A stretch of DNA of 64,000 bases from an uncultured bacterium (GCA_964482205.1 CAYZWI010000009.1:79586-143585); one strand, 5' to 3'. Numbered from the stretch's first letter, positions 7,792-59,458 are shown. Translations and numbers: made by a program. Notes: generated by a model not told the origin, from the sequence alone.

Positions 7792-7859
7792 GCTGCCATG
7801 CGGGCAGTGGGCGCGCCGCGCTCCGCCACGAACACGAGGGAAGCAGAACGACCGCGCCT

Positions 7860-17926: not shown

Positions 17927-18541
17927 TCAGCGGCGGATGCTGCGCTTCCTCGGCTCTTCCTTCTTTCCCTTGGTCTCGCCCTTCGTCCCGCTGGTGTCGG
18001 TAGAGCTTCCCTGCTGTCCCTGCGAAGAGCCGACCGCCGGTCCCGGACTGGGAGGCGCGGAGATCAGAGGCGCGGGCACGACCAGGGGATTGCGAAAGCG
18101 GGTGGAGTCGATGCTCGAGAATCCGTTGCTTCTCGGCCGGCGGACCCAGGCTTGCCGGCCGGAAGGTTCGCCGGAATCCTTCCCCGAACCGCTGCCGGCG
18201 TCGCCGCCCGCCCTGCCGATGTCCTCCGATCCGAGCACCCAGGCATCGTCCTGCCACCACGGAGAGCCGTAGTAGTTGATCCACGGCCACGAGGAATGCG
18301 TGTAGTAGTCCACCCAGGGGGCGTACTCGACGATCGCCTCGTCGCTCTCCGCGTGGCATTGCGCGCAACTCTGGTCCCCGGCGGAAACGCTCGAATATCC
18401 CTGGGAGCTAGGATGCCGCAGGAGGGTGTAGCACCCTGTGAGGAGAAGCGCGAAAGCCAGGGCGAGAACCCCTGTCGCGACCAGTCCGCGCTTTCCCTGG
18501 AACGCCGAAGGGCTGGAATCCATGACGATCGCCTCCTTCAT
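17927..18541 (-). CDS. Hypothetical Trp-rich lipoprotein
   Basis: Lipobox LLLTGC. Trp/Tyr-rich segment SSWPWINYYGSPWWQDDAW and a Ser/Gly/Lys-rich tail. The start could be either of two Met codons at 18541 or 18523. Confidence 0.45.
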   Translation of the reverse strand: MKEAIVMDSSPSAFQGKRGLVATGVLALAFALLLTGCYTLLRHPSSQGYSSVSAGDQSCAQCHAESDEAIVEYAPWVDYYTHSSWPWINYYGSPWWQDDAWVLGSEDIGRAGGDAGSGSGKDSGEPSGRQAWVRRPRSNGFSSIDSTRFRNPLVVPAPLISAPPSPGPAVGSSQGQQGSSTDTSGTKGETKGKKEEPRKRSIRR

Positions 18542-23896: not shown

Positions 23897-24370
23897 ATGC
23901 GAGTCGATAAGGTGAAGGAACTGATCGAGCTCGTCGAGGCGAGCGCCATCGACGAGCTGGAGATCCGGGAATGGGGCAGATCGATCCGGATCTGCCGCCA
24001 GTCTCGCGCCGGCGCGGCAACCCAGGCTGACGCCGGCCCGGGCAAGCTCCACGCGCCCGCGGCGCACGCTCTGATTGGAGAGCCCGAGGAGCCGGCCGAC
24101 GCCGACGCGGGATTGGTCGCCATTCGCTCTCCGATGGTCGGGACCTTCTACCGTTCTCCTTCGCCCACGGCGCGCTCGTATGTGGAGGCGGGCAGCCGGG
24201 TGGCGGTGGGGCAAGTGGTGGGAATCATCGAGGCGATGAAGCACATGAACGAGATCGAGTCGGAAGTCGCCGGCGAGATCGTGCGGGTGCTTCTGGAAAA
24301 CGGCCGCAGCGTTGATTTCAACCAACCTTTGTTTCTGGTCAAACCCGACCATCCCGGGTCCCAAAGCTGA
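23897..24370 (+). CDS. accB: Biotin carboxyl carrier protein of acetyl-CoA carboxylase
   Basis: IEAMKHMNEIESEVAG is the biotinyl-lysine EAMK motif. Confidence 0.9.
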   Translation: MRVDKVKELIELVEASAIDELEIREWGRSIRICRQSRAGAATQADAGPGKLHAPAAHALIGEPEEPADADAGLVAIRSPMVGTFYRSPSPTARSYVEAGSRVAVGQVVGIIEAMKHMNEIESEVAGEIVRVLLENGRSVDFNQPLFLVKPDHPGSQS

Positions 24371-24467
24371 TCGTCCCTCAGGCGCAATCGTCCGCGCCCC
24401 CGCCCTCGCGGCGGGCGGCGGGGCGGTTCGTCGAGCCGAGTGTTCCTTGGGGCGAAAGGATGGAATC

Positions 24468-25712
24468 ATGCCGAGCGTCGACTTGCACCGCATTCTCGAG
24501 AAGATGATCGCCCGCAGCGCCTCCGACTTGCACCTGCGGGCCGGCGCGCCGCCCGTGTTGAGGATCGACGGAACGCTGGTCCCCCTCGACCACGTCCCCC
24601 TCGGCATGGAGGACATGGAAGCGATCACGCGCCAAATCGTGCCGCCCGATCTGCAGGAATCGTTCGCCCGCAGCCATGAAGTCGACTTCTCCTTCGGCAT
24701 CTCGGGACTGGCGCGCTTTCGCGCGAACTTCTACTACCAGCGCGGGACGATCGCCGGCGCGATCCGCTGCATTCCGCTCACCATCCCGGAGATCGATGCG
24801 CTGCATCTGCCCGCGATCGTGAGCCAGCTCGCGATGAAGCCGCGCGGCCTGATTCTGGTGACGGGCACGGTGGGCAGCGGCAAGTCGACGACGCTGGCGG
24901 CGATGATCGATCTCATCAACCGCACCACCGAGAAGAACATCATCACGGTGGAGGACCCGATCGAATTCCTGCATCGCAATCAGAAGTCGATCATCAGCCA
25001 GCGCGAGGTCGGCCAGGACACGCTCGATTATCTCGCGGCGCTGAAATACATCCTGCGCCAGGACCCCGATGTGATCCTGATCGGTGAGATCCGCGATCAG
25101 GCCTCCATGTCGGTCGCGTTGATGGCCGCGGATACCGGGCATCTGGTCTTGAGCACTCTGCACACGACCGACGCGGCGCAAACGGTGAACCGGATCATCT
25201 CCTTCTATCCGCCCCATCAGCACGCCGAGATCCGCTTCCTGCTCGCCTCTTCCCTGCAGGCGGTGATCTCGATGCGGCTGCTGCCCATGGCGGGCACGCC
25301 CGGACGCGTGCCCGCGGTGGAAGTGATGATCAACACCGAGACGGTGCGCGAATGCCTGCGCGATCCCGACCGCACCGGCCAGATCCGGGACATCATCGCC
25401 GACGGATTCCATCAATACGGGATGCAGACCTTCGACCAGTCGCTGATGAAGCTCTACCGGGAAGGGCTCGTCTCGCTGGAGGAGGCGCTGCGCCAGTCGA
25501 CGACGCCGACCGAGTTCGAGTTGCGCCTGCGCGGCATTCATGCGACCAGCGACACCACCTGGGAGGCCTTCGAAAATTCGCGCGCGCCCGCCGCGGCGGC
25601 CGGGAAGCCGGGCGGCGAGCCGGCGAGACCGCCGGAACGACCGTGCAGGCAGGCCGACGAGGGTCCATCCGGGCGGAGAATGAGCGGCGCATCGAAGCCG
25701 GGAATACGCTAG
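24468..25712 (+). CDS. PilT/PilU-family retraction ATPase (second paralogue) with about 70-aa low-complexity C-terminal tail
   Basis: Walker A VTGTVGSGKSTT and PilT signatures throughout. Inserted between accB and accC. Confidence 0.8.
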   Translation: MPSVDLHRILEKMIARSASDLHLRAGAPPVLRIDGTLVPLDHVPLGMEDMEAITRQIVPPDLQESFARSHEVDFSFGISGLARFRANFYYQRGTIAGAIRCIPLTIPEIDALHLPAIVSQLAMKPRGLILVTGTVGSGKSTTLAAMIDLINRTTEKNIITVEDPIEFLHRNQKSIISQREVGQDTLDYLAALKYILRQDPDVILIGEIRDQASMSVALMAADTGHLVLSTLHTTDAAQTVNRIISFYPPHQHAEIRFLLASSLQAVISMRLLPMAGTPGRVPAVEVMINTETVRECLRDPDRTGQIRDIIADGFHQYGMQTFDQSLMKLYREGLVSLEEALRQSTTPTEFELRLRGIHATSDTTWEAFENSRAPAAAAGKPGGEPARPPERPCRQADEGPSGRRMSGASKPGIR

Positions 25713-27404: not shown

Positions 27405-28490
27405 TCAGCGGTTGCTGCGCCAGAAGAGAATCGCCCCGAGAATTCCGAAGACGATATTCCCCAGCCAGGCCGCGGCCATCGGATGCAGATGCTCGGTGTA
27501 TCCGAGCGCCTGGCCCACGCGCAGGAAGCCGTAGTACGCGAAGCCCAGCGAAATCGAGATGCCGAATCCCAAGGCCAGCGTTCCGCGAATGATCCTCAGC
27601 GAAAGACAGGTGCCGAGAAGCACCATGATGAAATTCGCGACGGGGAACGCGGCGCGCAGGTGATAGTCGACCCGGTACTTGCTCACCCGCGCCCCTCCTT
27701 CGCCGATGCGCGCGATGTAGTCGTTCAATTGCCCCCGGGTCATGCGGAACGGGTCGTTCTCGATGCGCCGGAATTCGTCCGGCTGCTCCACGAAGCGGCT
27801 GTCCCCGTAGCGCGCGAAGGACGCCATCGTCTCGCGTCCGTCCTGGAAGAGGCGGACGCTGCCGTGCTCGAGCTCGAGAAATCCTTCTTCGTTCCACAGC
27901 GCCTGCGCCGCGTCCGCGCGTTTCCACAGCGTGGGCCCCGCCTGCAACTGCTGCACCGAGACGCCGGTCAGCTGCGGGCGCCGGGGGTCGAATTGCTCGG
28001 CGACATAGACGCGCCCGCCGCGCCCGATGTAGTAGACGTCGCTGCGTCCGATGGAATCGGCCGGGCGCTTCTTCTTGATCGTGACCTCGAGCGTTTCCTC
28101 CTTCTGACGATAGGCGCCGGGGACGAAGAATTCCCCGATCAGGTAGCTGCCTCCGCTCACCAGCAGGCCGAGGGCGAGCACCGGCGCGGTGATCCGCACG
28201 GGAGAGAGCCCGCAGCTTTGCATGGCGGTGATTTCGTTGAATCTCCGCATCTGTCCGAAGGCGAGCACCGCGGCGAGGAGCATTCCGATCGGAAGCACCT
28301 GCACGAAGATGACGGGCAGGCTGTTCAGGTAGTAGGTGAGGATCGCGCCCGTCGAAGCGTGATAGTCGACGAAGGTGTCGATCTTCTCGAAGAGATCGAC
28401 GATGAGATAGATGCCGATGAAGACGCTCAGCCCGAGCAGGAGATGCAGGGCGAATTCGCGCAAGACATGCCGGTCGAGGATGCGCAGCAT
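27405..28490 (-). CDS. lptG: LPS export ABC permease LptG (YjgP/YjgQ family)
   Basis: Six-TM permease with a periplasmic beta-jellyroll insert. ATGA-coupled downstream of lptF. Confidence 0.75.
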   Translation of the reverse strand: MLRILDRHVLREFALHLLLGLSVFIGIYLIVDLFEKIDTFVDYHASTGAILTYYLNSLPVIFVQVLPIGMLLAAVLAFGQMRRFNEITAMQSCGLSPVRITAPVLALGLLVSGGSYLIGEFFVPGAYRQKEETLEVTIKKKRPADSIGRSDVYYIGRGGRVYVAEQFDPRRPQLTGVSVQQLQAGPTLWKRADAAQALWNEEGFLELEHGSVRLFQDGRETMASFARYGDSRFVEQPDEFRRIENDPFRMTRGQLNDYIARIGEGGARVSKYRVDYHLRAAFPVANFIMVLLGTCLSLRIIRGTLALGFGISISLGFAYYGFLRVGQALGYTEHLHPMAAAWLGNIVFGILGAILFWRSNR

Positions 28491-29926
28491 CACTCGCCCT
28501 CCGTTCGCCCGGCGCACGCGGCGGGCGCGTTCGACGCGGGCCCGGCCGCTGCGCGCCCGCGCGCCCCTTCACTTCCCGCCGGCCACAGATGCACGCCGCA
28601 CATCCGCAGCGAGAGCAACACTCCCAGGAATCCCAGGACCACATTGGGCAGCCACATCGCCACGGTGGGGCCGAGCAGGCCCCGGTCGGCGAGCTGCTCG
28701 CCGCCGACCAGACAGAGGTAGTAGAAGATGAAGAACCCGGCGCTCAGGAATCCCGCGGCCAACCCTCCGCGTCTCGCCCGCACGCCCAGCGGAGCGCCGA
28801 CGAGCACGAAGACCACGCACGCGACCGGGATGGAGATCTTCTTCTGAATCTCCACGCGAAACTGGTCCATGCGCTTCAGGATGGCGCGCGCTTGCAGGCC
28901 GGCGACGCGCGCTTCGTCGGCCGCCCGCCGGTTCTGCGGCGTCCAGACGCTGTCGGGCAGGGGAGGCAGTTTCTCGGACGGTCGAGCGCCGCCGGCAAGG
29001 AAGCCGTACCACGGCCGTCCCGGCTGCTCGCCGGGAAGCTGGGCGAGAGACTGCGCCCCGATTTTCTCGAGCAGCTTCCGCGCGGTCTCCTCGTGGGTGC
29101 GGCGTTCCGCGTCGAGCTCGGCGATATAGGCCTTCATGTCCCGGATGGACATCTCCCGCTGGCCGCGCGCGCGCCCTTCCGCGGGAGCGAGCGCCTCCCG
29201 GGACCCCTGGATGTTCAGCGTCTGGCTCTCGAATTCCATCTTGCGGTACACGGGCTTGCCTTCCAATTGCTCGGCCTCGTGGATTTCTCCGGACGAGAGC
29301 TTGAGGCGCAGCATTCCCGAATCCGCGTCGTACTCGAGCGTGCCGTTCTTCGCCAGGATCGTCCGCGGCGGCTGGTCCTTGCGGCTGAAGTCGTGGATCT
29401 GGATGTCGCTCATCTTGCCGGTGCGATCTTCCAACTGTCCGATGAACATCTTGTAGCCGCTGAAGGCGTCGATCCAGACGCCTTCCTGGATCTCCGCGGT
29501 CGGACGCTTGCGATTCACCGCGAGCATCAGGTTCGCCCAGGCGTGGTTCATGTCGGGCAGCACGCGGTCGTTGAAGACCGCCAGCCCCGCCGCGAGCAGC
29601 GCGCTGGCGACGAGGGTGGGGGCGACGATGCGCATCGGGTGGATCCCGCTCGATCGCGCCGCCGAGATCTCGTTGTCCTGCGCCATGCGCCCGTAGGTCA
29701 TGAGCACACCCACCAGCACTCCGCACGGCACCGAGAGGGCCAGCATCCAGCCGAGCCCGAGAAAGAAGAGTTTGAGAACGATCCCGAGGCCGATGCCTTT
29801 ACCCAGGAAGAGGTCGAGGTAATCGAAAAGAAAATCCATCGTCAGAAGAAATGTGACCACGAACGCTCCGAGCAGGAAGGGGCGCACGAGCTGTCGCAGC
29901 ACATAGCGTTCGAGGAGTCGGCTCAT
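28490..29926 (-). CDS. lptF: LPS export ABC permease LptF (YjgP/YjgQ family)
   Basis: MSRLLERYVLRQLVRPFLLG... is the YjgP/YjgQ N-terminus. Large periplasmic insert. Paired with lptG. Confidence 0.75.
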   Translation of the reverse strand: MSRLLERYVLRQLVRPFLLGAFVVTFLLTMDFLFDYLDLFLGKGIGLGIVLKLFFLGLGWMLALSVPCGVLVGVLMTYGRMAQDNEISAARSSGIHPMRIVAPTLVASALLAAGLAVFNDRVLPDMNHAWANLMLAVNRKRPTAEIQEGVWIDAFSGYKMFIGQLEDRTGKMSDIQIHDFSRKDQPPRTILAKNGTLEYDADSGMLRLKLSSGEIHEAEQLEGKPVYRKMEFESQTLNIQGSREALAPAEGRARGQREMSIRDMKAYIAELDAERRTHEETARKLLEKIGAQSLAQLPGEQPGRPWYGFLAGGARPSEKLPPLPDSVWTPQNRRAADEARVAGLQARAILKRMDQFRVEIQKKISIPVACVVFVLVGAPLGVRARRGGLAAGFLSAGFFIFYYLCLVGGEQLADRGLLGPTVAMWLPNVVLGFLGVLLSLRMCGVHLWPAGSEGARGRAAAGPASNAPAACAGRTEGE

Positions 29927-30137: not shown

Positions 30138-33100
30138 ATGAGGGTCCGGGAAGCGGCAGGGATAGTCCTTTTGGCGGTGCTGGCCTGTGTGATGGGCCAC
30201 CCGTTCTGGGGAGGTCGCAATGCGCGGCCGCCCGTATTGGCTGCACCCCTTCCCAACGCGACCGCCCATGCGTCGGATCTCATCGCCCTTCCCGATTCCG
30301 GTTCCCTGCGACCCGTTCTCGATTCCTTGAGCGCCTTCCTGCCCGCGCTTTCGGACACTCCGGTTTCCGCCGATTCCCTGATCTCGTCCGGCTCCGCCGC
30401 ATCCGCCGGCTCGGACACGACCATCGTTTCCGCATCCTTCGCCCGCGGCGACTCGCTCGCGGCGGACACGACCAGCGCCTCCGCATCCTTCGCCCGCGGC
30501 GACTCGCTCGCGGCGGACACGACCATCGTTTCCGCATCCTTCGCCCGCGGCGACTCGCTCGCCGCGGACTCGACCAGCGCCATGCCCAGTACCACTCTAC
30601 CCGCCACCCCGGGTTCCGCAACCACGCCCATCGACGGGTTGTCCGGCGGCCACCGGCCGTTCGAGTCCGATCCCTTCCGGATTCTCGCCTCCTGGAATGC
30701 GGGCCCTGGCGATACGGCGAGCGTGCGCCCCTTGCTCTGGTCGGCGAGCGCGGACCCGATGCAGGACGCGCTTCTCTACCGCTTGTACCGGCGCTTGTCC
30801 AGCCGCCGTTTGGTGCGCGACGAGCTTCAGCTTCGTCCGGAGGACTTCGCCCGCGCCGACTCGGTCGCCCTCGCCATCGATGCGCGCCAGGACTCGCTCG
30901 TCGCCGCAGGCGCGGCCGCCGGGGCCTACTACTGGTCGGGCCGCTCGGGCGGGCTGCGCATTCTGCCTCCGCCGGTGCGCAGCCTCGCGGGCGGGCCGCT
31001 CGTCACCTGGCAGCACACCGTCGATCTCGACGAGGCCCGCATCCACCGCAGCCGGCTTCGCCAGGGGCTGGAGATCGACGCGCTGCCGCCCTCGTCGTAC
31101 GGGGACCATCTCGCGCGCATCAGCCGTCTGCACGCCCGCTCGGTGTGGAAGGAGCAGCTCAAGGAATCGATGAAGCGCGCCACCGTGAAGGGCGGACGCG
31201 CGGGTCTCGTCAGAATCTCGCTCCCCTTCGAATTGCCCAAGATGGTCCGCTCGGTTTTCGGGGAAGGCAAGCCCAACCTCTCGGTGAACGGCAGCGAGCG
31301 GATTACCTTCGGCGGACGCAGCCAGTGGTTTCCTCACCGGCCGACCTACGAATTCCAGCGCAAGCCTTCGAAGTTCCCGCAGCTCGAGATGAAGCAGGAC
31401 CTGACCATCCGGTTGAAGGGCAGCATCGGTGACAAGCTCGACGTGGATGTCGATCAGGCGAGCGAGGCGCAGACCTCGCTCGCGAACCGCATCGGGATCC
31501 ACTACCACGGGTACGAGGATGAGATCATCCAGAAGGTCGATCTCGGCAACACCAGCCTGCGCCTTCCCGGAACCGAGTACGTGAGCTACGGTGGCTCTCA
31601 CACCGGCCTCTTCGGCATCAATGCGGAAGCGAAGGTCGGCGATCTGGTCTTCACCACGATCATCAGCAAGGAAGAAGGCGAGACGGCGGAGAAGTCGACC
31701 AGCGTGCGCAGCCAGGAACAGACCAAGACGATCAACGACTACGAGTATGTGAAAGACCGCTTCTTCTTCCTGAACGATCCGGGGGGCGACGCATATCCGG
31801 GAACGGGAGGCCCCTACGACATCGTGCGCATCCGGCAAGGGACGGTGATCCTGTACCTGGACGACGGCGATGGAGACACGCAGGAGACCTTCGCGACCTC
31901 TCCCGGACGCGCCGTGCTGAATCTCGACGGTCCCGTTCCGGCGCTGGGCGACACGACCGCCGGTCCGTACTACTTCCAGCAGCTGGACGAAGGGGTGGAC
32001 TACGAAGTGCTCATCGACGAGCGCAACCAGACCCACCCGATCGTGATCCTGAACCGCTACCTGGAGCAGAACTCGACCCTGGGCGTCATCTACTACGACG
32101 AGGGCCGGCAGAGAAATGTCGGCGGAGTGGCGAACGATTCGCTCTTCGTGAAGATGATCCGCCCGCGCTATGACCTCGTGCAATCCGACATGAACGGCGG
32201 TTCGTGGGGCCCGACCAACCGGCTGATGCTCAAGAATGTCTATCCGCTGCAGCAGTCGCTCGAGAACTGGACCGGCGCGGGCCTGCCCGACAACACGATC
32301 CTGCAGGATGGGTTCGAGCTGCGCATTCACTACAAGGGCACGATCGCGGGCGTCGAGGACCCCGACGAAATCGCGGGCACGCGCCTGATCCGCCACCTCG
32401 GGCTCGACTACTATCAGAAGAGCGACGCGGGGCTGGTCCTCGGCCAGGACAGCCGCGTCGACGATGTCTGGATCGACTTCACCAACGGCTACCTCTTCTT
32501 TCCCGATCTGCGGCCCTTCGCGCCCACCGACGGCAAGGGGGGCGTCGACCTGCGCGGCCGTCCTGGACCGCCTTCCTCGTGGGATGTGCTGCCGCGCGAG
32601 AACTGGAACGGCAACATCTACGACCGCCGCTCGTGCGCGCGCGACCGGGACCTGCCCGGTTCGGACACCACCTGGACGTCGCGGTATTACATCGAGGTGA
32701 AGTACCGCACGCCCGTTTCCGAGCTGCGCATCGACGCCTGGGACATCATCGAAGGCTCCGAGGTGGTCACGGTCGGCAGCCGCAGGCTGGCGCGCGACAC
32801 CGACTACCGCATCGACTATCAGACGGGCGTCATCCGTCTCTACGATCAGGCGGGAATCCGCGAGGACGACGAAATCCGCGTCACCTGCAAGCACGCCGGC
32901 GGTCTCGGCACGGTGAGCAAGACCCTGCTCGGCGCGGCGATGATCTACCAGCCCGAAGACTCCGATTTCTCGATGTCGACTTCGTGGCTGTACGAGCGGC
33001 GCGGCAGTCCCGACCGGCGGCCCCGTCTGGGATCCGAGCCCACGCGCATCGCGGTGGGCGAAGTCGCCGCCCGCTACGCGCGCGAGTCGGGCGGCCTCAC

Positions 33101-36100
33101 CTGGCTGGTCGATCAGCTTCCCTTCCTGAACGCGCGCAAGACTTCGCAGATCTCGCTCGAAGGCGGCATGGGGCTTTCCTTCCCCAATCCGAATACGAGG
33201 AACGATCTCTACATCGACGATTTCGAAGGCGTGGCCGACGACATCTATGTCCGCTTGAACCGCCTGGCATGGCAGCCGGCGGGACTTCCGCAAGTCGGCG
33301 TCCCCGGCCTCGACGAACGCGAGCAGACGGCCCGGCGGGGCGAGATCTGGTGGTACACGCCCTACCGGACCGTGCAGGAAGGCGACCTGAATCCCACTCT
33401 CGAGTACCAGGAAGCGAACGACTACCGCTCGGTGCTCGAACTGCAGATCTGGCCGTACGAAGGCGCGCTCGAGGAGGGCGGAGCGGGAGGCGTGTGCCTG
33501 CCCGAGGAATCGTGGTCCGGCATCGTGCAGGGGCTCTCGACCACGAACCAGGATCTCACCCGCGCGCGATTCCTCGACATCTGGGTGAACGACTTCGTTC
33601 CCTGGGAGCACTTCAAGGAGGACACGACCCTGCGCTCGGGCATCCTGCACGTGGACATCGGGCAGGTGAACGAGGATGTGCCCTGGATGAAGCGGCGCGT
33701 CGACTGCGCCACGAGGCAAGTGCTCGGCGGCCCGGTGCCTCCCGTCAACCGCAGCCTGGACAGCGAAGACCTGAACCGCGACGGGCAGCTCGACCTGAGC
33801 GAGCTGGCCGACGAAGACTCGGGCCTCGACGGCGTCGTCGACGAGGCGGGCAACAGCGCCTTCGACGACTACGAATGGACCGCCGACCCGGAGGGCGAGT
33901 ACGAGACCTTCGAGGATCTGTGTGAAGTCTATCGGGCCGTCAATGGAACCGAGAAGAACGGACGGCTCGATACCGAAGACCTCGACGGCGACAAGAGCCT
34001 CGACCAGATGGACTCGTACTTCGAGTTCACGGTGAACCTCGCCGACACGAGCTTTCTCGAGACCGATGTGCGGCGCGATTACGCGGGCCGGGAGACGAAC
34101 TGGACGCTGCAATCGAACAACGGCTGGCGCCGCATCCGCATTCCGCTCAGCGAAGCCTACATCAGCGAGCGGGTGGGAATGCCTTCCTGGGATGAAGTCA
34201 AGCACCTGCGGATCTGGTTCTCCGGAGTGCCCGAATGGAAACGCATCCAGATCGGCGCGGTCGAGATCCGCTCCAATCGCTGGATCACCGAGCCGGTCCG
34301 CGATCTGGCGGGCAACCAGATTCCTCCCTCCGAGCTCGCCGCCAACGAGGAGGACTTCTTCCCCGGGGTCTACAACAACAAGGAGAACTCGGATGTCTAC
34401 TATCCGCCGTTCGAGCCGCATCGCGACGAGCAGCGCGAATCAGGGGATGTGAAAGAACGCGAGCAGTCGCTGACGATGGAGATGCGCAACTTCCAGCCGG
34501 GCCATGTGGGCCGCGTCAACCAGCCCTTCTTGCGCGATCAGGACTACACCGGCTACGAGTCGCTCGAGCTCTGGCTGAACAGCACCCTTCCGCCCGGCGC
34601 CGAGGCGGAGTTCTTCCTGCGCTTGTGCAAGGACGCGAACGCCGACACGACCGACTTCTACGAATACCGCGTGAAGGTGCCGGTCGCCAGCGGCTCGCGC
34701 CCGAGCGGCCATTGGCAAGAGGTGTGCATTTGGCTCACCGACTTGAGCGACCTGAAGGATCTCGCCGAAGACGCGGACGCCGACATCTCGCGGCAACTGG
34801 AGGACGGGGGCACGGTCCGCATGAAGGGCCATCCCTATTTGACGCGCATCCGGCGGATCACGATGGGGGTCGCCTACCTCGGGCCCGACCCGCTGTCGCA
34901 AGGCAATGTGTGGATCGACGAGCTGCGCCTGGCGAATGTGCACAAGGATGTCGACTACGCCATGCGCATGCAGGTGCGCACCGAGCTCTCGGACTTCGCC
35001 CGGCTCGATTTCAGCTTCCGCCAGACGGGCGCCGATTTCGTGAGCATCAGCGGGGGCGGCTTCAACAAGCGCAAGGAGCGCGAGACGAGCTACGGGCTCT
35101 CGACCGGCACGGTCCCGCTCGAGCGCCTCATGCCCTCCTGGCTCGATCTCTCGCTGCCCTTCAGCTTCCAGCAGGATTGGAGCCGGCGGGTGCCGAAGTA
35201 CCGCACCAACGACGACCTGCTGGTCGAAGACGATCCGAGCGACCGCGACCTGACCGAGCAAATGAATCGCAATTACAGCCTGAGCATCGGCCGTCGCGCT
35301 TCGGCGGCGGGAGGGTTCGCGCGCTACACGATCGACGCGCTGCGCTTCAGCGGGTCGCTGCGCCAGGCGTTCAACGCCAATCCGCAATCGCGCGACTCCA
35401 CGACCACGCGAACCTTGACGGCCAACTACTCTGTGCCCTTCGGCCCCTGGGGCGACATCGGTCTGTACAAGACCTGGAAGGTGCGGCTGCTGCCCACCAG
35501 TCTGGCGCTGGCGTTGACCAAGAGCGAGCGCGACGAGGCGCGCTATCGCCGGGAGAACGGCGATCTGGCGAAGCCCTTCCTCGTCGACGACCGCCGGACC
35601 GTGCGTTCGGGAGGGCTGAGCCTATCGACCTCTTTCAAGCCGATCACCGCGGTGACCTACGATTTCAAGCAGAGCCGCGATCTCATGCTGCGCCAGGAAG
35701 CGTCCTGGCTCGGCGGGCTGAACGTCGGCCGCGAAACTTCCCGCCAGGAGAACCTCTCGGCGAACTATCAATTGCGAATGGTCAAGGGCTGGATCGAGCC
35801 GCGCTTCATTTGGGGCTCCGATTTCCGGGGGAGTTTCAATCGCCAGGGAGGCGCGGGCGGCGGAGGGCTCGAACGCTACAACGAGCTCACGAACAGCCGC
35901 ACCCGCTCCGCCAACTGGGACCTGCCCGTGCAACGGCTGCTCCAACTGCTCGAATCCTCCGGCGCTTCCCAGGAGGTGACGCCGCACCACGCTGAGCTAT
36001 TCGCTCGCCGATCGGAGCACCTTCAACCGGGTGAGCGGCGAGCCGGATGTCGCCTACCAGCTCGGTTTCACGATGGATCCGAAGGTCGAGCGGCTGGAGA

Positions 36101-36864
36101 ACTACCGCGAGGCGCTGGTGCAGGGCACCCAGCTCAAGCTCGACGCGGAGATCCAGGTCGCGGGCACGATCGGAGTGACCGCGCGCTACAGCGATGACGA
36201 TTCCGAGACGCGATCGGCGGGCGTGCTCACCGGGATCCGGGACCGGATTCTCCCGGAAGTGAACATCCGTTGGGGAGAGATTCCCCAGAAGCTGGGCATG
36301 CGCGCCTACTTCCGCAGCTTCAAGGCGAACACGCGCTTCTTGAGAAAAGACAAGCGCACCACCCGCGAGGGAGAGCTGAATCGCCTCGAGCAGGAATCGC
36401 AATGGGCGCCGTTCCTGGATCTCGAGCTGGGCTTCAAGTCCGGCGTGACCGCCACCATGCGCCTCGACCGCTCGACGCGTCACACCGAGGACTTGACCGC
36501 GCTCAAACGGATTTCGGACCGCACCGACTCGAAGATCATGCTCTCCGCGAAAAAGAGCATGACGATCACGCGCGAAGTGACCGTGCCGCTCAAGAAGACG
36601 AAGGAGCGGATCACGACGAAGCTGGACTTGACCTTAAGCTTCAATTACAGCGCCTACCAGGATGTGACCCGGCAGATGGGGTACAATCCGCAGGTGACCG
36701 CGGACGTCAAGCAGTACGAAGCGGGATTGGGCGGCAGCTATCAGTTCACGAGAAGCGTCACCGGCAACATGATCCTGAATTACGGTGAGAACGCGGACAA
36801 CAAGAACCGCACGCGCACGACGCGCTACGCGACGGTGAGCCTCTCCGCCTCGTTCTCGTTCTAG
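30138..36864 (+). CDS. Giant (about 2,240-aa) secreted outer-membrane beta-barrel protein, SprA/Sov-like (type IX secretion translocon candidate); reading frame broken by a +1 shift near 35,976-35,982
   Basis: ATG at 30138 with signal/TM MRVREAAGIVLLAVLACVMG. The frame-0 ORF runs to 36197, but its last 70 or so residues are Arg/Gly-rich junk. Frame +1 is open from 35980 and continues with protein-like beta-strand sequence (TTLSYSLADRSTFNRVSGEPDVAYQLGF...), ending in the OMP C-terminus ...RYATVSLSASFSF* at 36864. Alternating hydrophobic patterns are present throughout. Size and architecture match SprA/Sov. Assignment to that family is inference and needs an HMM search. Confidence 0.55.
30431..30583 (+). 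repeat. Three tandem ~51-nt repeats inside the giant gene, each encoding ...SASFARGDSLAAD(T/S)T...
   Basis: Near-identical DNA units begin at 30431, 30482 and 30533. Each encodes an RGD tripeptide. Confidence 0.8.
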
Positions 36865-36925
36865 GCGGGATGCTGAGACCGCGCGGCCGCGCCGGTCTTT
36901 CAGCGCCCTTTGCGTCGGGAGTTCC

Positions 36926-37909
36926 ATGGAGCGTGGGCTGCGACAGGGGCGGGCTCGCCAGCTCGACCGTTCGCTTCGAACAGTCGCGATCTCGCTTTTG
37001 CTCGCCGCCTGCCTGTTCGCTTGCCCGGCGGCCGCCCGTCCGTCCGGCGACTCCGATTCGCTCTTCACGGCGGCTGAAGCGCTCGGCTCCCGGGCCTTCG
37101 CCCACCTTCAGGCGCAATGCGCCTTCGGGCCGCGGAATCCCGGGTCGAGCGGCCACGCGAAATGCCTGGAGTACATTCAGACGACCCTCGCCCGCGCGGG
37201 CGGGCGGATCACGACCCAGGCCTTCTCGCACCAGGCGCCGGGCCTGTCCGCCCCCGTCGCCCTGACGAATGTGGTCGCCCGCTTCGGTCCCGAGCGGTCC
37301 GGCGGAATCCTGCTCTGCGCTCACTGGGACACCCGGCCTTGGGCGGATCGCGACCCGGACCCTGCCCGGCGGGGCGACCCGATCCTGGGCGCGAACGACG
37401 GCGGATCGGGCACGGGGTTGCTGCTCGCCCTGGCCGAACGCCTGGCCGAGGAACCGCCCGATTTTCCGGTGACCCTGGTCTTCTTCGACGGGGAAGACCT
37501 CGGACGGGAAGGGCATGGCGAGGAGTATCTCGCGGGGTCGGTCCACTTCGCCGAGCGTCTTCCGGAACTCCTTCCGCACCTTTGTCTTCTGCTCGACATG
37601 GTGGCCAGCGAGACGATGGTGCTGACCCTCGAAGCCACCTCCCGGTCGCTGCAGCCCGATTGGGCGGGAGTCATCGACGGCATCGCGGAGCGATGGGCCA
37701 TCTCCACCTACGATCCCATCTGGGCGCCCCCCGTCATCGACGACCACATCCCGCTGCTCCAAGCCGGTTTGCCGGCCCTCTGCCTGATCGACTTCCGGGA
37801 CCCCCACTGGCACACCCACGCCGATTCGCCGGCGCACTGCTCGGCCGCGTCCCTGAGAGACACGGCGCTCGTCGTCCTCGGCCTTCTCGAGGGGCCCCAC
37901 CTGCGTTAG
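36926..37909 (+). CDS. M28-family zinc peptidase / glutaminyl-peptide cyclotransferase-like lipoprotein
   Basis: Lipobox LLLAACLFAC. M28/QC metal-ligand context HWDTR, DGGSGTG and FFDGEDLG. About 327 aa, immediately downstream of the giant beta-barrel gene. Confidence 0.6.
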   Translation: MERGLRQGRARQLDRSLRTVAISLLLAACLFACPAAARPSGDSDSLFTAAEALGSRAFAHLQAQCAFGPRNPGSSGHAKCLEYIQTTLARAGGRITTQAFSHQAPGLSAPVALTNVVARFGPERSGGILLCAHWDTRPWADRDPDPARRGDPILGANDGGSGTGLLLALAERLAEEPPDFPVTLVFFDGEDLGREGHGEEYLAGSVHFAERLPELLPHLCLLLDMVASETMVLTLEATSRSLQPDWAGVIDGIAERWAISTYDPIWAPPVIDDHIPLLQAGLPALCLIDFRDPHWHTHADSPAHCSAASLRDTALVVLGLLEGPHLR

Positions 37910-38025: not shown

Positions 38026-38210
38026 ATCGCCTCTGTATACCCTTGGATTACGCTTGCTCAGGTGTTCCGATCCGGGTACTCTGGAAGCGTTCGGGCGGGC
38101 GGTTTCGTCCGCTCGGTTTTGTGTTTGAAGCGAGGCCTGCTTTCCCGGCCTTGAGGCTGGGAAGGTGTGCCCCTTTTGGGCGTTCCGGGCCGGCAGGCCC
38201 CGAGATCGGC

Positions 38211-38681
38211 ATGATCAGCAGGGACGAAGTCGCATCCATCATCGCTCCGATCCTGGAGGAAGCGGGGGCGGAGCTGGTGGAGGTTCAGGTGGTTCCCGGC
38301 GGGAGACGGGCGCGCTTGCGCATTTTCGTCGATCGCGAAGGCGGAATCACCGTCGGCGAATGCGGGCAGTTGAGCCGGCGCATCGGGCGGGATCTCGATG
38401 CCGTCCCGGCGCTCGCCTCCGGCTACTGGCTGGAGGTTTCGTCGCCCGGCATGCGCCGTCCGATCTGGAAGCTGGAGCATTTTCGACGCTTCGTCGGCGA
38501 ACGGCTGGTCTTCGAACTGGCCGAACCGCGCGAGGGGCGGACGCGCTTCGACGGAACGATCGAGGCGGTCGAGAACGAGCGCATCCGCTTGCGCACCGGC
38601 GAGGGTGCGTTGATCGAGACGGATGTCGCGGGAATCGCGAACGCCCATCTCGACCTCGATCCGTGGAAGCGGCGCGAATAG
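38211..38681 (+). CDS. rimP: Ribosome maturation factor RimP
   Basis: DUF150-type sequence (GYWLEVSSPGMRRPI). Conserved position immediately upstream of nusA. Confidence 0.8.
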   Translation: MISRDEVASIIAPILEEAGAELVEVQVVPGGRRARLRIFVDREGGITVGECGQLSRRIGRDLDAVPALASGYWLEVSSPGMRRPIWKLEHFRRFVGERLVFELAEPREGRTRFDGTIEAVENERIRLRTGEGALIETDVAGIANAHLDLDPWKRRE

Positions 38682-38810
38682 GAGTCGCGCGGGGCATCGA
38701 TCGCCGCCTGCGGGCGGACAAGGATGGCGCGGGGCATCGATTGCCGCCCTCGCGCGAGCAAGGAAAGCGGGGGGCGGAAAGCGCTCCGCGCGGGCAAAGC
38801 GGGGAAGCCA

Positions 38811-40304
38811 ATGACTTCAGAGATCTTGGATGCCTTGACGGTCATCGCCAAGGAAAAGGGAGTCGAGCCGGAGTACCTGCTCGAGACTCTGGAGAGCAGC
38901 CTGCTGGCCGCCGCACAGAAGAAGTATCGCCGGGCCGCGCACGTCGAGGTCAAGGTGGACCAGGGCAGCGGAGAAATCGAGATCATCGTGCACATGCGCG
39001 TCTCGAAGCTCGCCTGGGACCCGACCAGCGAAATCGACATCCACGAAGCGCGCCGCATCGATCCGGATGTGCGCGAGGGCGATGTGGTTCCCGTTTCGGT
39101 GCCGGTGGCGGAGTTCGGGCGCAACGCGATTTCCGCGGTCAAGCAGTCGCTCGTGCAGCATGTGCGCGAGGCCGAGCGCAAGAATGTCTACGAGGAGTAT
39201 GTGCGTCGCGTGGGCCAGGTGATGACCGCCACCGTTCAGCAGGTGGACTTCGGCAGCATCATCCTGCGCCTGGGCGGTGCGGAAGGGGTCATCCCTCCCG
39301 AAGAGAACATTCGTCGCGACCGGCCGAAGATCGGCGATCACATCCGCGCCCTGCTCATCAATGTCGATCCCAGCGCGCGCGGGCCGCAGGTGATCTTCTC
39401 GCGCACGCGTCCGGAATTCGTACTGAAGCTCTTCGAGCAGGAAGTGCCCGAGGTCTACGAAGGCCTGGTGGAGATCAAGGGCATCGCCCGCGAGGCGGGG
39501 GCGCGCACGAAGATCGCGGTCATTTCCCACGACGAGCGCGTGGACCCCGTCGGCGCGTGCGTGGGCGTCAAGGGCTCGCGCGTGCAGAACATCGTCAAGG
39601 CGCTCGGCGGCGAGCGGATCGACATCATCGCGATGAGCTCCGACCCGCTGATCTTCGTCAGCCGGGCCCTGAATCCCGCGCGGGTGCTGAGCGTGAGCTT
39701 CATGGGGGATCCCAAGACCGTGCGCGCGGTCGTGCCCGACGATCAGCTTTCGCTCGCCATCGGAAAGAACGCCCAGAATGTCCGCCTGGCGAGCCAGTTG
39801 ACCGGGCTGGAGATCCAGCTCGTCAGCCAGTCGCAGCACGCCTCGCTGGAAGGGCGGCGGGAAGGGGAAGTGGTCGAGCTCGAGTCGCTCACGAAGGAGC
39901 TCGGGCCGCGCCTGGTCGAACGCTTGATGAAGGAAGGCAAGGAAACGCTTCAGGATGTCCTCGACACGCCGGTGGAAGAGTTGATGAAGATCCAGGGCAT
40001 CGGGGAGAAGACGGCGAGCAAGCTCGTCACGGTGGGCGCCGCCATCCTCGAGCGCTGGTCGGCGGAACGCGAGCGCCAGCGGGCCGCGAAGGCGGCGGCA
40101 AGCGCGGAGTCCACGGAAGAGACGCAAGCCGCGGGGACCACGGAAGAGACGCAAGGCGCGGAGGGCGCGGAAGGGGCGCAAGCCGCGGAGTCCACGGAAG
40201 AGGCGACTGACGAAGAGAGCGCCGAAGCGGCGGCGGGCCAGACCATCAGCGAGGAAGGCGGAGCCTCCGAGGCGAAGGAACAGCCGGGTTCTGCCGAACG
40301 GTAA
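38811..40304 (+). CDS. nusA: Transcription termination/antitermination factor NusA
   Basis: S1 and KH domains (RTKIAVISHDERVDPVGACVGVKGSRVQNIVKALGGERIDI). C-terminal acidic repeat region. Confidence 0.9.
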   Translation: MTSEILDALTVIAKEKGVEPEYLLETLESSLLAAAQKKYRRAAHVEVKVDQGSGEIEIIVHMRVSKLAWDPTSEIDIHEARRIDPDVREGDVVPVSVPVAEFGRNAISAVKQSLVQHVREAERKNVYEEYVRRVGQVMTATVQQVDFGSIILRLGGAEGVIPPEENIRRDRPKIGDHIRALLINVDPSARGPQVIFSRTRPEFVLKLFEQEVPEVYEGLVEIKGIAREAGARTKIAVISHDERVDPVGACVGVKGSRVQNIVKALGGERIDIIAMSSDPLIFVSRALNPARVLSVSFMGDPKTVRAVVPDDQLSLAIGKNAQNVRLASQLTGLEIQLVSQSQHASLEGRREGEVVELESLTKELGPRLVERLMKEGKETLQDVLDTPVEELMKIQGIGEKTASKLVTVGAAILERWSAERERQRAAKAAASAESTEETQAAGTTEETQGAEGAEGAQAAESTEEATDEESAEAAAGQTISEEGGASEAKEQPGSAER

Positions 40305-40359
40305 CCGGGGCCGATGATCGGCCGGAAACGAGGCCCGCGGATTTCGGAAAGGGACGGCA

Positions 40360-42924
40360 TTGAGAAAGGTTCGCGTCTATCAGCTCGCTCGGGAGCTACG
40401 CCTCACGAACGAGGCGCTGCTCGACATCCTGCGCGAGATCGATTCCTCGATCACCACGCACACGGCTTCCGTGAGCGGCGAGGTAGCCGAGGAAATCCGC
40501 CAGCGTCTGAGCGGCAATGCGCCTCGGAGTGCGGCTGCGCCCGCCGGTGACCCGGTCGCGCAAGCGACCGTGACCGCCGAGGAAGGAACGGCCCAAGCCG
40601 CTCCCGCGAGAGCGGTGCGCCGTCCCGCAGCGCGCGTGACCCCCGTGCAGCCCACCGTGCCGGTATGGAAGCTTCCCCGCCTGCCGCAGGCTCCCGATCT
40701 CAGCGAGACGCTCATCAAGGCGAAGGCGGGCCCGGCGACCACGCCGCCTCCCGCTCGCCGCGTCGGACCGGTCCTGCCCAGGAGCGGCCGCCCTGGAGCG
40801 CTTCCGGCGGAGATGCCGCAGCCCGAGGCGGCGGCTCCCGGCCGGACCTACTATCCGTCCCAAACCTCGCGGCCGGGTGGACGCGGGCGAGGCATGACGA
40901 TCGAACGCGGGCTGGGCGAGCGCGACCGTGCGGGCCTCGACCGTGGGCGAGGCGCCGTCGCGCCGGGAGGAGGCGCCACCGACACTCGTCCGGGGCGCAA
41001 GGTTCGCAAGAAGAAGCGCACCCGCCGGGAAGTGGACGAACGGGAAGTGCTCGACAGCGTGCGGCGGACGATGGCGACCATCGACGGCACGCCGCGCAGG
41101 CGCCGCCGCCGCCGCCACGAAGAGGGCGAAGAGGTCCTCGGCGAGGATACCCGCACGATCAAGGCGAGCGAGTTTCTCACCGTCGCGGAATTTGCCGCGT
41201 TGCTCGGCGTGCGGCCGGCCGAAGTGATCGCCGCCTGCCTGCGGCTCGGGATCGTCGCCAATGTGAACCGGCGGCTCGACAAGGATGCGATCGAAGCGGT
41301 CGCGGACGAATTCGATTACCGGGTCGAGTTCGTCAAGGAATTCGGCGAGGAAATTCTCGAGGAGCAGGAAGAGGAGACCGAAGCGGGGGACGAAGCGCCG
41401 CGCCCCGTCGTGGTCACGGTCATGGGACATGTGGACCACGGAAAGACGAAGCTTCTCGATTACATTCGCAAGACCGATGTGATCTCGCGCGAGTCGGGCG
41501 GAATCACCCAGCACATCGGCGCCTATCAGGTGCATCTGCCCAGCGGCGGCGTGGTCACCTTCCTCGACACGCCGGGCCACGAGGCCTTCACCGCCATGCG
41601 CGCGCGCGGAGCGGATGTCACCGACCTCGTGATCCTGGTCGTGGCGGCCGACGACGGCGTGAACAAGCAGACGGTCGAGGCGATCAACCATGCCCGCGCC
41701 GCGCGCAAGCCGATCGTGGTCGCGATCAACAAGTGCGACCTTCCCAACGCCAACCCCGAGCGAATCAAGAAGGAGCTTTCCGAGCACGGCTTGCTGGTGG
41801 AGGAATGGGGGGGCGAAACGGTCGCCGTCGAAATCTCCGCCAAGCAAGGCACGAATGTCGAGCGCCTGCTGGAAATGCTGATGCTCGTCGCCGAGATGCG
41901 CGAGCTGCGCGCCCAGCCCGGCCGGCCCGCCAAGGGCACGGTGATCGAGGTGCGCAAGGACCCCGGGCGGGGCATCGTCGGCACGGTGCTCGTTCAGAAC
42001 GGCACCTTGCGCATCGGCGACTCGTTCGTTTGCGGCATCCGTCACGGCAAGGTGCGGGCGATGACCGACGACCTGGGAGAACGCGTCGAAGCCGCCGGGC
42101 CCTCGACGCCGGTCGAATTGCTCGGCTGGTCGGACGTCCCTCAGGTGGGCGACACCATCGCGGTCGTGAAGTCGGAGTCGCTGGCGCGCGTGATCGCAGG
42201 CGAACGCTCGCAGATCGCCCGCGAGCATCGCATGAAGCTGGCCTCCGACCGCTTCCGTCTCGACGACCTGCATGTCCGCATCAAGGAAGGCCAGAAGGCC
42301 GACTTGCGCCTGATCATCAAGGCCGATGTGCAGGGTTCGGCCGAAGTGCTGCGCGACTCGCTGGAGAAATTGACGAGCGATCAAGTGAGCGTGGTCGTCG
42401 TCCACGCCGGGGTCGGCAAGATCAACGAGTCGGATGTGCTGCTGGCGACCGCTTCGAACGCGATCATCATCGGCTTCCAAGTGCGCCCCGACCCGCGCGC
42501 CACGCTGCTGGCGCAGAGCGAGGGCGTGGAGATCCGTCTCTACAAGGTGATCTACGAGGCGATCGATCAGGTCAAGGACGCCATGGCCGGACTGCTCGCC
42601 CCCGAGATGAAGGAGCGGGTGCTGGGATCGGCCGAGGTGCGCGAGATCTTCCGCGTCAGCAAGGTGGGAACGGTGGCGGGTTGTCATGTGATCACCGGAA
42701 TGATTTCCCGCCAGGCGCTCGCGCGGGTGATTCGCGGCGAAGATGTCGTCTGGTCGGGAAAGATCTCGACCCTCAAGCGTTTCAAGGACGACGCCCGCGA
42801 AGTCCAGGCGGGCTTCGATTGCGGCATTTCGCTCGAGGAGAACGACGACATCCAGGTGGGCGATCTCATCGAGGCGTACGTGGTCGAGGAAGTGGCCCGC
42901 AGTGCGGCGGCCGAGACCCGCTAG
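40360..42924 (+). CDS. infB: Translation initiation factor IF-2
   Basis: G-domain [16 protein letters not shown] ... DTPGHEAF ... NKCD, with a long low-complexity N-terminal region. TTG start. Confidence 0.9.
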
Positions 42925-50558: not shown

Positions 50559-50955
50559 ACGGGGCAGGGGAGCCGGCAAGCGCACGGACCTGCGGGCGAT
50601 TTCGCCGGGGGAGAGGGCGCAGCCGGTAAGTGAAAGCTGCACAGGAGGAAAGAAGGCTGAGCGGGAGTTGGGAATTGGCGCCGGGAAAGCCGGGGCCTGG
50701 AGCAGGACCGGGCATGGGCCAGGGCCGGCCGGCGGGCCGAGCCGAGGCCCGCGGCATCTGGAACATCAAGAAGCGCAACCCTCCCGCCGACTTTTGCTTA
50801 GGATGCGCGATGCTCATTTCGGCCGAATCGGCCCGCATCGGATGGACGGCGATGGCGGCGGCCACTTCGGCGGTGCCCTTTTGAAGCGCTCCCGGTCTGT
50901 TCTTGGTGGAATACGGAATGAACAACACAAGGATGTGCGCGTGAAAGAGCGGCGG

Positions 50956-51738: not shown

Positions 51739-51804
51739 GTGGCGGGGCGGGAGGCGGGTTCCCGCGCGAGAGGAAAGGGCCGCAGGACCGGCCGGAGGAG
51801 CCAG

Positions 51805-53166: not shown

Positions 53167-53224
53167 GGCGGCTCTCGCCGGATGGCCGGCGATACGCGGC
53201 TCTTGCGCGCCGCGGAGGACGAAG

Positions 53225-55128: not shown

Positions 55129-55260
55129 CCGGGCGGACGGGCGCATCCAGGGATGCCCGCGGACACAAGCCGCGCCCGCGGGAGCACGAGGCGCACGCGG
55201 CATGCGGCCGAAGCCCCGCGGTGTTAACGGGCCTGCCATCAGACAGCTCGGAGGGCGCGC

Positions 55261-56589: not shown

Positions 56590-56646
56590 CCAAGGGAAGG
56601 AAGCGATGACGCCGGCGCTCGCGATCGCATTCGGGAGGCGAGAAGC

Positions 56647-59072: not shown

Positions 59073-59458
59073 TTCGTGAGCGCGCGCCGTACCCTCGAGT
59101 CCCGAACCGGTTGACCATAAGGTATGGAGAATGGTAGCCTATATTCCTGTCGAAAGATGGGTTGCCCTTGTACCGAAAACTGGGAAGAAAGGAAGGTGAT
59201 GCTTAGCGAGTTGTTGTGATGCATGGACTTGACCGTTTCCACAGAGCCGCATGAGCCCCTTTCCGCGCCGATGCGCGACGCAGGGGTGGCGGCGCCGGAG
59301 CCGAGAGGCCCGGCGGGCGTGACCAGAGGCCTGCCCTTTTGGGAAGACTGCCCGACTATGGGTGGGCCAGAGAGGTGCGCTTTTTCTTTGCCCCGCCGGC
59401 ATCGGTCTGCTCGTTCCCTGGGCGAGGCCGTCCAGGCGAGACCCAGAAAGCTCGACCG

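Follow-up and report, generated by a model that had tools for sequence, protein, structure and literature searches.

In a 64,000-nt stretch of DNA from an uncultured bacterium (GCA_964482205.1, CAYZWI010000009.1:79586-143585; hereafter the window, meaning the whole stretch), two plus-strand genes spanning positions 30138-37909 form a pair, in which sprA, the gene for the outer-membrane translocon of the secretion system known as type IX (T9SS), is directly followed by a gene for a glutaminyl cyclase (QC). We consider it likely that this locus is a sprA-QC pair of Candidatus Eisenbacteria, that its two genes are co-transcribed and that the QC is tied to the translocon or to the clients of the translocon. 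We favour a functional tie because the pair is kept across Eisenbacteria and in further lineages in which the flanking genes are different. The surrounding chromosome region has a G+C content of 66%. By blastn, contig JAEAMF010000060.1 (GCA_016294905.1; locus L001 in our survey) is 100% identical to window positions 20138-46864, in two blocks of 15,848 and 10,882 nt with 0 mismatches (26.7 kb), bar 140 nt that are considered below, and the closest SprA and QC homologues are, wherever the source gives a name, those of Candidatus Eisenbacteria. These matches bear out the first-pass annotation of the window, made from the sequence alone, in placing the host outside Bacteroidota. NCBI taxonomy lists Eiseniibacteriota under candidate phyla; we take the group to lie in or near the Fibrobacteres-Chlorobi-Bacteroidetes (FCB) superphylum.

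Judging from profile and sequence comparisons, the larger gene is an orthologue of SprA/Sov, as had been proposed at first pass. SprA/Sov is a very large β-barrel of the outer membrane, with 36 strands and a lateral opening that PorV and the Plug protein close in alternation, and serves the T9SS as exit for proteins with a C-terminal sorting domain. Its open reading frame (ORF), which is broken near the 3' end, scored 497.5 bits against TIGR04189 (the NCBIfam equivalog 'T9SS outer membrane translocon Sov/SprA'; cut-off 200) and 511.3 bits when the two parts were joined, the joined version gaining a third matched stretch from the 3' part, and the Pfam domain SprA_N (PF14349) was recognized at 66.7 bits against a gathering threshold of 27. 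In a phmmer search of PDB sequences, the sole matches were the Flavobacterium johnsoniae SprA entries 6H3I and 6H3J (E=2.6e-44), and a profile built from 18 homologues matched 6h3i_A with E=1.3e-142, in 2 stretches covering chain residues 400-2045 of 2403. Altogether, 107 SprA homologues were found, mostly of 1,900-2,400 aa, several of which are named SprA of Candidatus Eisenbacteria. The product ends in the canonical C-terminus of an outer-membrane protein (OMP) that had been pointed out before (...TVSLSASFSF, stop at 36864); the terminal Phe (F2288 of the intact protein) is invariant in the 18 homologues, as are many Gly, Pro and aromatic positions, at 26-71% identity.

The second gene (36926..37909, plus strand; 327 aa) is, on the evidence of its sequence and predicted fold, a type II (PgQC-like) glutaminyl cyclase of the M28 fold, with a Pfam M28 match of 93.6 bits. 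The closest PDB sequences are 6qro (TfQC, Tannerella; 4.3e-37), 6qql (PgQC, Porphyromonas; 1.1e-35) and 7cje (1.3e-35), and further matches include 4fuu/7d1d (BtQC; 5e-32) and 3TC8, from Bacteroides/Parabacteroides. Animal QCs rank next, at 1e-13 to 1e-8, and the best true aminopeptidase (6hc6) follows at 1e-4. The metal-ligand motifs of M28/glutaminyl-cyclase type noted at first pass are present: D158-G159, E190-D191 and W295-H296 are invariant in 30 QC homologues and have D149-G150, E182-D183 and W298-H299 as their counterparts in PgQC, so that the ligand triad D158, D191 and H296 aligns to D149, D183 and H299. The zinc ligands of bacteroidal QCs are Asp149, Asp183 and His299, of which Asp183 is specific to these enzymes, and bacteroidal QCs differ from the two-zinc aminopeptidases in having Gly, not Asn/Asp, after Asp149 and Trp, not Tyr, before His299 (Taudte et al., PMC7948796). 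The AlphaFold2 model of the window protein (predicted local distance difference test, 93.3; predicted template modelling score, 0.87) was compared with known structures by Foldseek. BtQC, PgQC and TfQC were aligned with template modelling (TM) scores of 0.86-0.89 (target-normalised) and a root mean square deviation (rmsd) of 1.8-2.1 Å, and ranks 1-10 consisted of bacterial QCs or re-assigned deposits (TM 0.82-0.89, rmsd 1.8-2.5 Å); the Streptomyces griseus aminopeptidase reached TM 0.70-0.73.

It is extremely unlikely that the M28 protein is instead a conventional two-zinc aminopeptidase, even though Pfam returns Peptidase_M28 only, NCBIfam gives weak matches to dapE and to an aminopeptidase model, NCBI names the homologues 'M28 family peptidase', and several of the close relatives originally bore the name 'leucine aminopeptidase' in the PDB. 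Those deposits have been re-assigned as QCs (PMC7948796; 7D1D, 7D1E), and many homologues are named glutaminyl-peptide cyclotransferase by the Joint Genome Institute. Moreover, the protein lacks what marks the second zinc site (a bridging Asp followed by Asn/Asp, a Glu-Glu pair and a His ligand preceded by Tyr), and the true aminopeptidases lie far lower both by sequence and by fold. PDB ranking, motifs and fold thus all favour a QC over an aminopeptidase, and the enzyme is predicted to cyclize N-terminal Gln. It is probably exported and lipid-anchored: the N-terminus carries a hydrophobic segment, modelled as a helix, with a lipobox-like LLAAC (Cys29). The signals of the orthologues vary between lipobox-type and AxA-type.

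To assess the conservation of the pair, we used the SprA alignment to search GTDB, with each species represented by one genome, which returned 79 loci. As strict criteria for Eisenbacteria-type loci, we asked that the 3' end of sprA be complete and be followed by no less than 900 nt of sequence; QC was located directly downstream of sprA on the same strand in all 39 of the 39 loci so selected. Overall, the pair is present in 47 Eisenbacteria-type loci, with 0 counter-examples, across which identity drops to ~27% for SprA and ~47% for NusA. Eisenbacteria-type sprA-QC synteny was also seen in metagenome-assembled genomes (MAGs) labelled Limnocylindrales (L018), Hyphomicrobiales (L029), Acidobacteriota (L044) and Bacteroidota (L070). 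The latter three carry the full lptGF-sprA-QC-rimP-nusA block, and the short L018 contig has sprA-QC and an lptF match only; the taxonomic labels or the binning of these four are probably wrong.

Within the window, sprA and QC are separated by a 61-nt spacer (36865..36925, plus strand) with GGGAG 4 nt before the QC ATG, and a scan of the plus strand of this spacer found no terminator. A hairpin in the spacer was considered as a terminator and rejected (z = -0.09 against shuffles, U tract absent). Between QC and rimP, by contrast to the spacer, there is an intrinsic-terminator-like hairpin with a U-rich tail (38091..38126, plus strand), in which an 11-bp stem (8 GC) is followed by TTTTGTGTTT (fold z -2.13). 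Because sprA and QC share one orientation, with only this terminator-free 61-nt spacer between them and a terminator-like hairpin after them, they are most likely co-transcribed.

A second survey was seeded from QC homologues of non-Eisenbacteria lineages, and the contigs, representing 12 contexts, were inspected. In 9 of the 12, sprA is immediately upstream of QC, with gaps of 7-150 nt; the nine contexts belong to LCP-89, Zixibacteria, Neomarinimicrobiota and six unlabelled MAG or metagenome contigs. In LCP-89 (L056) and in a metagenome contig (L088), the pair is preceded by a gene on the minus strand for a cargo protein with a T9SS C-terminal domain (CTD) and followed by ppx and hrcA-grpE-dnaJ, whereas in the Zixibacteria-labelled contig L081 the order is prkA, CTD cargo, sprA, QC. 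Upstream of the pair, lptFG is found in L082 (no taxon label) and L087 (an unlabelled MAG), murB in L089 (a metagenome contig), and matE in L086 (an unlabelled MAG) and L091 (no taxon label; sprA in two ORFs), the last two with ppx after QC. In L086, two genes of the PorV/PorQ family, scoring 130.9 and 96.8 bits (cut-off 90), also lie 5-6 kb downstream. In the Neomarinimicrobiota contig L084, QC follows the C-terminal part of a SprA, which matches positions 2085-2305 of TIGR04189 at 72 bits, and the 7 kb after QC encode a FlgD_ig protein, two proteins resembling PorV/PorQ (92.4 and 65.4 bits; cut-off 90) and a CTD cargo. Cargo with Por_Secre_tail domains is found near sprA-QC in other-lineage loci. 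Because the pair recurs with differing neighbours in 9 of the 12 contexts, the sprA-QC linkage reaches beyond the frozen synteny of one phylum.

The exceptions were the Calditrichota contig L083 (8026-9954), in which the ORF before QC is PorV/PorQ-like at 49.9 bits, below the cut-off of 90; the 'FCB group' contig L085, with only QC-ppx; and L090 (5351-9942), in which a 1,215-aa tetratricopeptide repeat protein encoded upstream of QC was considered as PorW/SprE and rejected at 63 bits against a cut-off of 250. The upstream genes of L083 and L090 may represent alternative T9SS-linked contexts for QC. A further recurrent neighbour outside Eisenbacteria is a Ppx/GppA phosphatase gene, which follows QC in L056 (12045-13925), L085, L086, L087, L088 and L091, even where sprA is missing (L085); in L087, one DUF4390 gene lies between QC and ppx.

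The conservation of the pair points to clients or components of the translocon as important substrates of the QC. In the model that we propose, SprA would form the outer-membrane channel for CTD-bearing cargo, and export through it would be driven by a GldLM-type motor encoded elsewhere in the genome. The QC would be tethered at the periplasmic face, where this zinc-dependent enzyme would turn the N-terminal Gln that signal peptidase I exposes after Sec export into pyroglutamate. One possible form of the tie is that pyroglutamate would shield T9SS components or cargo from periplasmic aminopeptidases, a role comparable to that demonstrated for PgQC, in which pyroglutamate protects exported proteins from aminopeptidases (PMC10653852).

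Several points weigh against this view of the locus. First, what is syntenic within Eisenbacteria is the whole accC-lptGF-sprA-QC-rimP-nusA block, and the adjacency within this phylum could therefore be due to inheritance alone. More broadly, the pair might reflect inherited gene order without functional meaning, with QC acting as a general periplasmic housekeeping enzyme, an explanation that we regard as possible but unlikely. It fits the conservation of the block rather than of the pair alone, and none of the sprA loci of Rhodothermales, Longimonas, Salinivenus and Ignavibacteria has a QC within 6 kb. In Porphyromonas gingivalis, the QC gene shares an operon with PG_2158 and hemG, and the enzyme acts on 77% of the signal peptidase I substrates (PMC10653852); and neither L085 nor L090 has a T9SS-family gene at the curated cut-off beside QC. 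However, the pair persists, with gaps of 7-30 nt, where all other flanks differ, be it prkA and cargo genes upstream, ppx-hrcA-grpE-dnaJ downstream (LCP-89, L088), murB (L089) or matE (L086, L091). Inheritance of gene order would also have to accommodate the 9 of 12 non-Eisenbacteria QC contexts with sprA directly upstream, as well as a tenth, that of Calditrichota, in which a PorV/PorQ-like ORF, albeit at a sub-threshold 49.9 bits, precedes QC. We retain the functional tie as the likelier interpretation, with the reservation that both the terminator and the co-transcription of the two genes were called from sequence patterns only.

The second set of points concerns the substrates. Signal peptides were predicted with a home-made predictor that produces many false positives (for example, an internal segment of initiation factor IF-2) and was used qualitatively, and some cleavage sites were placed by eye. 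By this crude prediction and in a small sample, Gln occupies position +1 in about 2-3 of 6 exported window proteins, among them PilQ (ASA/QRGD, the slash marking the cleavage site) and a FadL-like OMP (AGA/QEDL). The SprA and QC orthologues of Eisenbacteria mostly do not have Gln after the predicted cleavage site, and a Bacteroidetes-style Q-rule, under which about half or more of the signal peptidase I substrates of an organism would have Gln at +1, is not evident in this small, crudely predicted sample. In the sprA-QC loci of other lineages, ~8 of 18-19 signal peptides read by hand are followed by Gln, some of those of CTD cargo included. Furthermore, the P. gingivalis QC acts on most substrates of signal peptidase I, and experiments speak against a role in targeting to the T9SS (PMC5837995, PMC10653852). 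The rationale of the first-pass annotation, namely that QC modifies T9SS cargo specifically, is not supported by these studies of P. gingivalis.

The third set concerns the remainder of the secretion system. Pfam and NCBIfam scans of the ~55 ORFs of the 64-kb window revealed no other T9SS component or CTD cargo at threshold, in line with what had been said at first pass about T9SS core genes in the window. Searches by tblastn with four PorV/PorQ seeds yielded no match in the window and the 79 loci, and in the flanks of the Eisenbacteria loci there were housekeeping genes only (e.g., metK, ahcY and accC). A PorV/PorQ profile seeded from other lineages matched proteins of Marinimicrobia, KSB1 and the FCB group among the best 120 matches listed, which include no Eisenbacteria protein; a complete T9SS in the host is therefore an assumption. 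One ORF of the FadL superfamily of OMPs (16346-17707, minus strand) had sub-threshold scores throughout (BamG, 43.8 bits against a cut-off of 250; PorV_fam, 31.6 against 90), with an hhalign probability of 81% to the PorV/PorQ profile and no PDB sequence match. It could be related to PorV/PorQ, or it could be the BamG-type subunit of the β-barrel assembly machinery that FCB phyla are reported to have. A small lipoprotein-like ORF (17927-18523, minus strand) precedes it.

Given that no other T9SS gene was found in the window or has been shown for the Eisenbacteria phylum, and that the divergent lptGF-sprA arrangement is conserved in Eisenbacteria and recurs in L082, L087 and a Fermentibacteraceae contig, the SprA homologue might be thought to act outside the T9SS, for example in outer-membrane or lipopolysaccharide (LPS) biogenesis together with lptF/lptG. 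We consider this very improbable: the protein scores at the level of the SprA equivalog, at 2.5x the cut-off, and other lineages with the sprA-QC pair have PorV/PorQ genes and CTD cargo adjacent to it. We know of no role for SprA other than in the T9SS.

The coordinates given at first pass (30138-37909) are exact; we place the sprA ATG at 30138, its stop at 36864 and the M28 ORF at 36926-37909. The description of sprA as a single 6.7-kb gene stands with respect to the two ends, namely the signal-peptide-like N-terminus (MRVREAAGIVLLAVLACVMG..., with a basic and a hydrophobic segment, judged by eye) and the ...TVSLSASFSF terminus, but not as one continuous ORF, for the frame is broken. Frame 0 from the ATG at 30138 is out of frame after ~35981 and runs through 71 such codons to a stop at 36197, whereas the C-terminal 293 codons lie in the +1 frame at 35983-36864 (...RTTLSYSLADRSTFNRVSGEPDVAYQLGF...TVSLSASFSF, then the stop). 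The 5' part (30138..35981, plus strand), identified by translation and by the matches to TIGR04189 and SprA_N, comprises codons 1-1948 of the intact protein, P0001 (residues 1-1948), and encodes, in this order, the signal-peptide-like N-terminus, a variable low-complexity region of ~330 aa and the conserved SprA core. The 3' part (35983..36864, plus strand) corresponds in translation to the C-terminus of P0001 and contributes the last 293 codons with the OMP-type end ...SLSASFSF.

Comparison of L001 with the window by blastn placed between the two parts the junction of a 140-nt deletion (35982..35985, plus strand; frame shift +1) with a 3-nt microhomology, 'cgc'. The 140 nt absent from the window correspond to L001 15849-15988, and the blastn blocks overlap by 3 nt. 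The intact P0001 has 2,288 aa and is identical to the window product on either side of the junction, where it has 46 extra residues. These residues, lost in the window (PERPPMDEGEEG...GGGGSLAKWFSVG), belong to a Glu/Gly/Pro/Arg-rich loop, which in the 18 homologues is unconserved in sequence and can be as short as a few residues or longer than 100. The conceptual repair to ~2,240 aa made at first pass presupposed a minor slip, whereas the sequence has in fact lost 140 nt, and the intact length is 2,288 aa. A single-base repair, joining 30138-35981 to 35983-36864 into 2,241 aa, is ruled out by P0001 and L001, the real difference being 140 nt.

The deletion may have arisen as an artefact of the assembly or consensus, may represent an allele present in a minority, or may mark a genuine pseudogene. 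If it is real, the window copy of sprA would be non-functional and its product would not form a closed barrel. Accordingly, one has to consider that the deletion is real in the sequenced population and that the organism or variant has no functional SprA, the gene being a decaying remnant of a T9SS. The frameshift is in the window itself and puts the last 293 aa, and with them the terminal Phe, out of frame, and L091, from another assembly, likewise has sprA in two ORFs. However, the intact 2,288-aa protein is encoded on three public contigs, one of which was retrieved and matches the flanks in the window at 100% over 26.7 kb; both halves of sprA are free of other mutations, stops or decay; and the deletion falls into a G+C-rich, low-complexity loop of variable length, the kind of place where errors of assembly or consensus, or minor population variants, typically occur. 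Decay of the gene is thus improbable. In L091, sprA extends over 2702-8993 as two ORFs that overlap and score 506 and 224 bits to TIGR04189, each exceeding the cut-off. It seems that giant sprA genes are prone to frameshifts or assembly breaks, and the window and L091 are a practical reminder that assemblies often break giant genes in which there are low-complexity loops.

The variable N-terminal region of the window sprA contains a 51-nt tandem repeat in 3.3 copies (30412..30581, plus strand; Tandem Repeats Finder score 284, 90% matches; also seen as blastn self-hits), which encodes 17-aa units of the SASFARGDSLAADTT type with an RGD. In the SprA proteins of Eisenbacteria, the N-terminal ~330 aa are unconserved and generally rich in short 'DSL/PDS' motifs.

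The pair is embedded in core-chromosome genes. Upstream of sprA are efp, accB, a PilT-family ATPase gene and accC, followed by lptG and lptF (27405..29926, minus strand; Pfam LptF_LptG, 276 bits each, and L001 gene calls), which are divergent from sprA. The lptGF genes are conserved upstream of sprA in the Eisenbacteria loci that include the upstream flank, and also in L082, L087 and L080, the last being a Fermentibacteraceae contig; the divergent arrangement with these LPS transport genes constitutes a second conserved neighbour relation of sprA. Downstream of QC and beyond the terminator-like hairpin lies the rimP-nusA-infB operon (38211..42924, plus strand; Pfam matches and L001 gene calls), conserved in this position in Eisenbacteria loci only, followed by DUF503, rbfA, truB, ribF, rpsO and pnp. 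Elsewhere in the window, positions 140-6402 hold a type IV pilus set (a pilM-like gene, the secretin with the ASA/QRGD cleavage site, a T2SSE ATPase and a prepilin peptidase), and the PilT-family ATPase gene between accB and accC (24249-25712) scores 448 bits to TIGR01420. At 50488-63846, there is an exopolysaccharide-type cluster encoding a Wza-like Poly_export/SLBB lipoprotein, a Wzz-like protein, an AAA ATPase, a sugar transferase and GT4 glycosyltransferases, together with a mannose-1-phosphate guanylyltransferase-like gene.

Both genes are new members of known families. The first-pass annotation had regarded a translocon-plus-QC pair outside Bacteroidota as an under-described T9SS configuration, which overstates the novelty: SprA is already regarded as FCB-wide in the literature, and homologues from Eisenbacteria bear the name 'cell surface protein SprA' at NCBI, so that a T9SS translocon outside Bacteroidota is not new in kind. 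The identity of an SprA orthologue and a PgQC-type cyclase by itself thus adds little where the public annotation already says SprA. Searches of the open-access literature turned up no paper that deals with Eisenbacteria together with T9SS or type IX secretion, and the titles and abstracts of the top-ranked open-access papers on glutaminyl cyclase with SprA or T9SS contained no report of sprA-QC adjacency. The conservation of sprA-QC as a unit in several candidate phyla with FCB affiliation is, therefore, apparently unreported.

The significance of the pair lies in its bearing on a known coincidence. Pyroglutamylation of exported proteins has been described as exclusive to Bacteroidetes (PMC10653852), and a 'striking phylogenetic coincidence' of T9SS with high Q-values was pointed out by Bochtler et al. 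(2018), the two being held mechanistically unconnected (PMC5837995). The sprA-QC pair turns this coincidence into a testable genomic association, and the linkage points to a possible original role of pyroglutamylation in the stability of translocon clients or components. A more far-reaching proposal, which we put forward tentatively and consider doubtful as it stands, is that QC, encoded in an operon with sprA, is a dedicated accessory of the T9SS translocon in many non-Bacteroidota FCB-affiliated phyla, that N-terminal pyroglutamylation at first served protection or maturation in connection with the T9SS and that the genome-wide Q-rule of Bacteroidetes is a later expansion, after separation of the genes. 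If true, a T9SS-linked origin would account for the coincidence left unexplained by Bochtler et al. (2018). In addition, PgQC-type enzymes, which are pursued as narrow-spectrum drug targets in periodontitis, are, as these loci show, widespread in environmental FCB-like lineages.

Among known systems, the window SprA is comparable to F. johnsoniae SprA (Fjoh_1653; 6H3I/6H3J) and P. gingivalis Sov, with which it shares the curated family, at ~2.5x the cut-off, and the combination of a signal peptide (here recognized by eye) with a C-terminal aromatic OMP signal. Homology to the F. johnsoniae structure extends over at least 1,650 chain residues, and the two proteins are of one size class (2,288 vs 2,403 aa), both in the range of about 2,000-2,700 aa expected of SprA/Sov. 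Unlike its Bacteroidota counterparts, to which it is only 22-25% identical, the window SprA belongs to a candidate phylum outside Bacteroidota; its first ~330 aa are lineage-specific, of low complexity, repeat-bearing and without a match; and its gene is directly followed by QC, preceded by divergent lptFG and, in the window copy, affected by the 140-nt deletion.

The QC resembles PgQC (PG2157/PGN_0202; 6QQL), TfQC (6QRO) and BtQC (7D1D/7D1E) in the M28 alpha/beta fold, the Asp/Asp/His ligand set of a single zinc, the bacteroidal-specific Asp, the Asp-Gly turn and the Trp-His, but is 28-31% identical to them in the Foldseek alignments. Like the lipoprotein PgQC, the window QC has an export signal with a lipobox-like motif, whereas many Eisenbacteria QC orthologues appear to have signals of the signal-peptidase-I type; and the window gene adjoins sprA, whereas that of PgQC is part of the PG_2157-PG_2158-hemG operon. 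With the co-catalytic M28 aminopeptidases of S. griseus (1XJO/1CP7) and Aeromonas/Vibrio (1AMP), it has the Pfam family and the overall fold in common, but it does not have their second-zinc-site features, and both sequence and fold scores are much weaker. As in the Q-rule system of Bacteroidetes (Sec, signal peptidase I and QC), an enzyme of the same type is positioned to meet exported N-terminal Gln, and some of the exported window proteins have Gln after the predicted cleavage site. The differences are that most SprA and QC orthologues here do not have Gln at +1 and that, in place of a system described as exclusive to its phylum, with a QC unlinked to T9SS targeting, we find QC outside that phylum and linked to the gene for the translocon.

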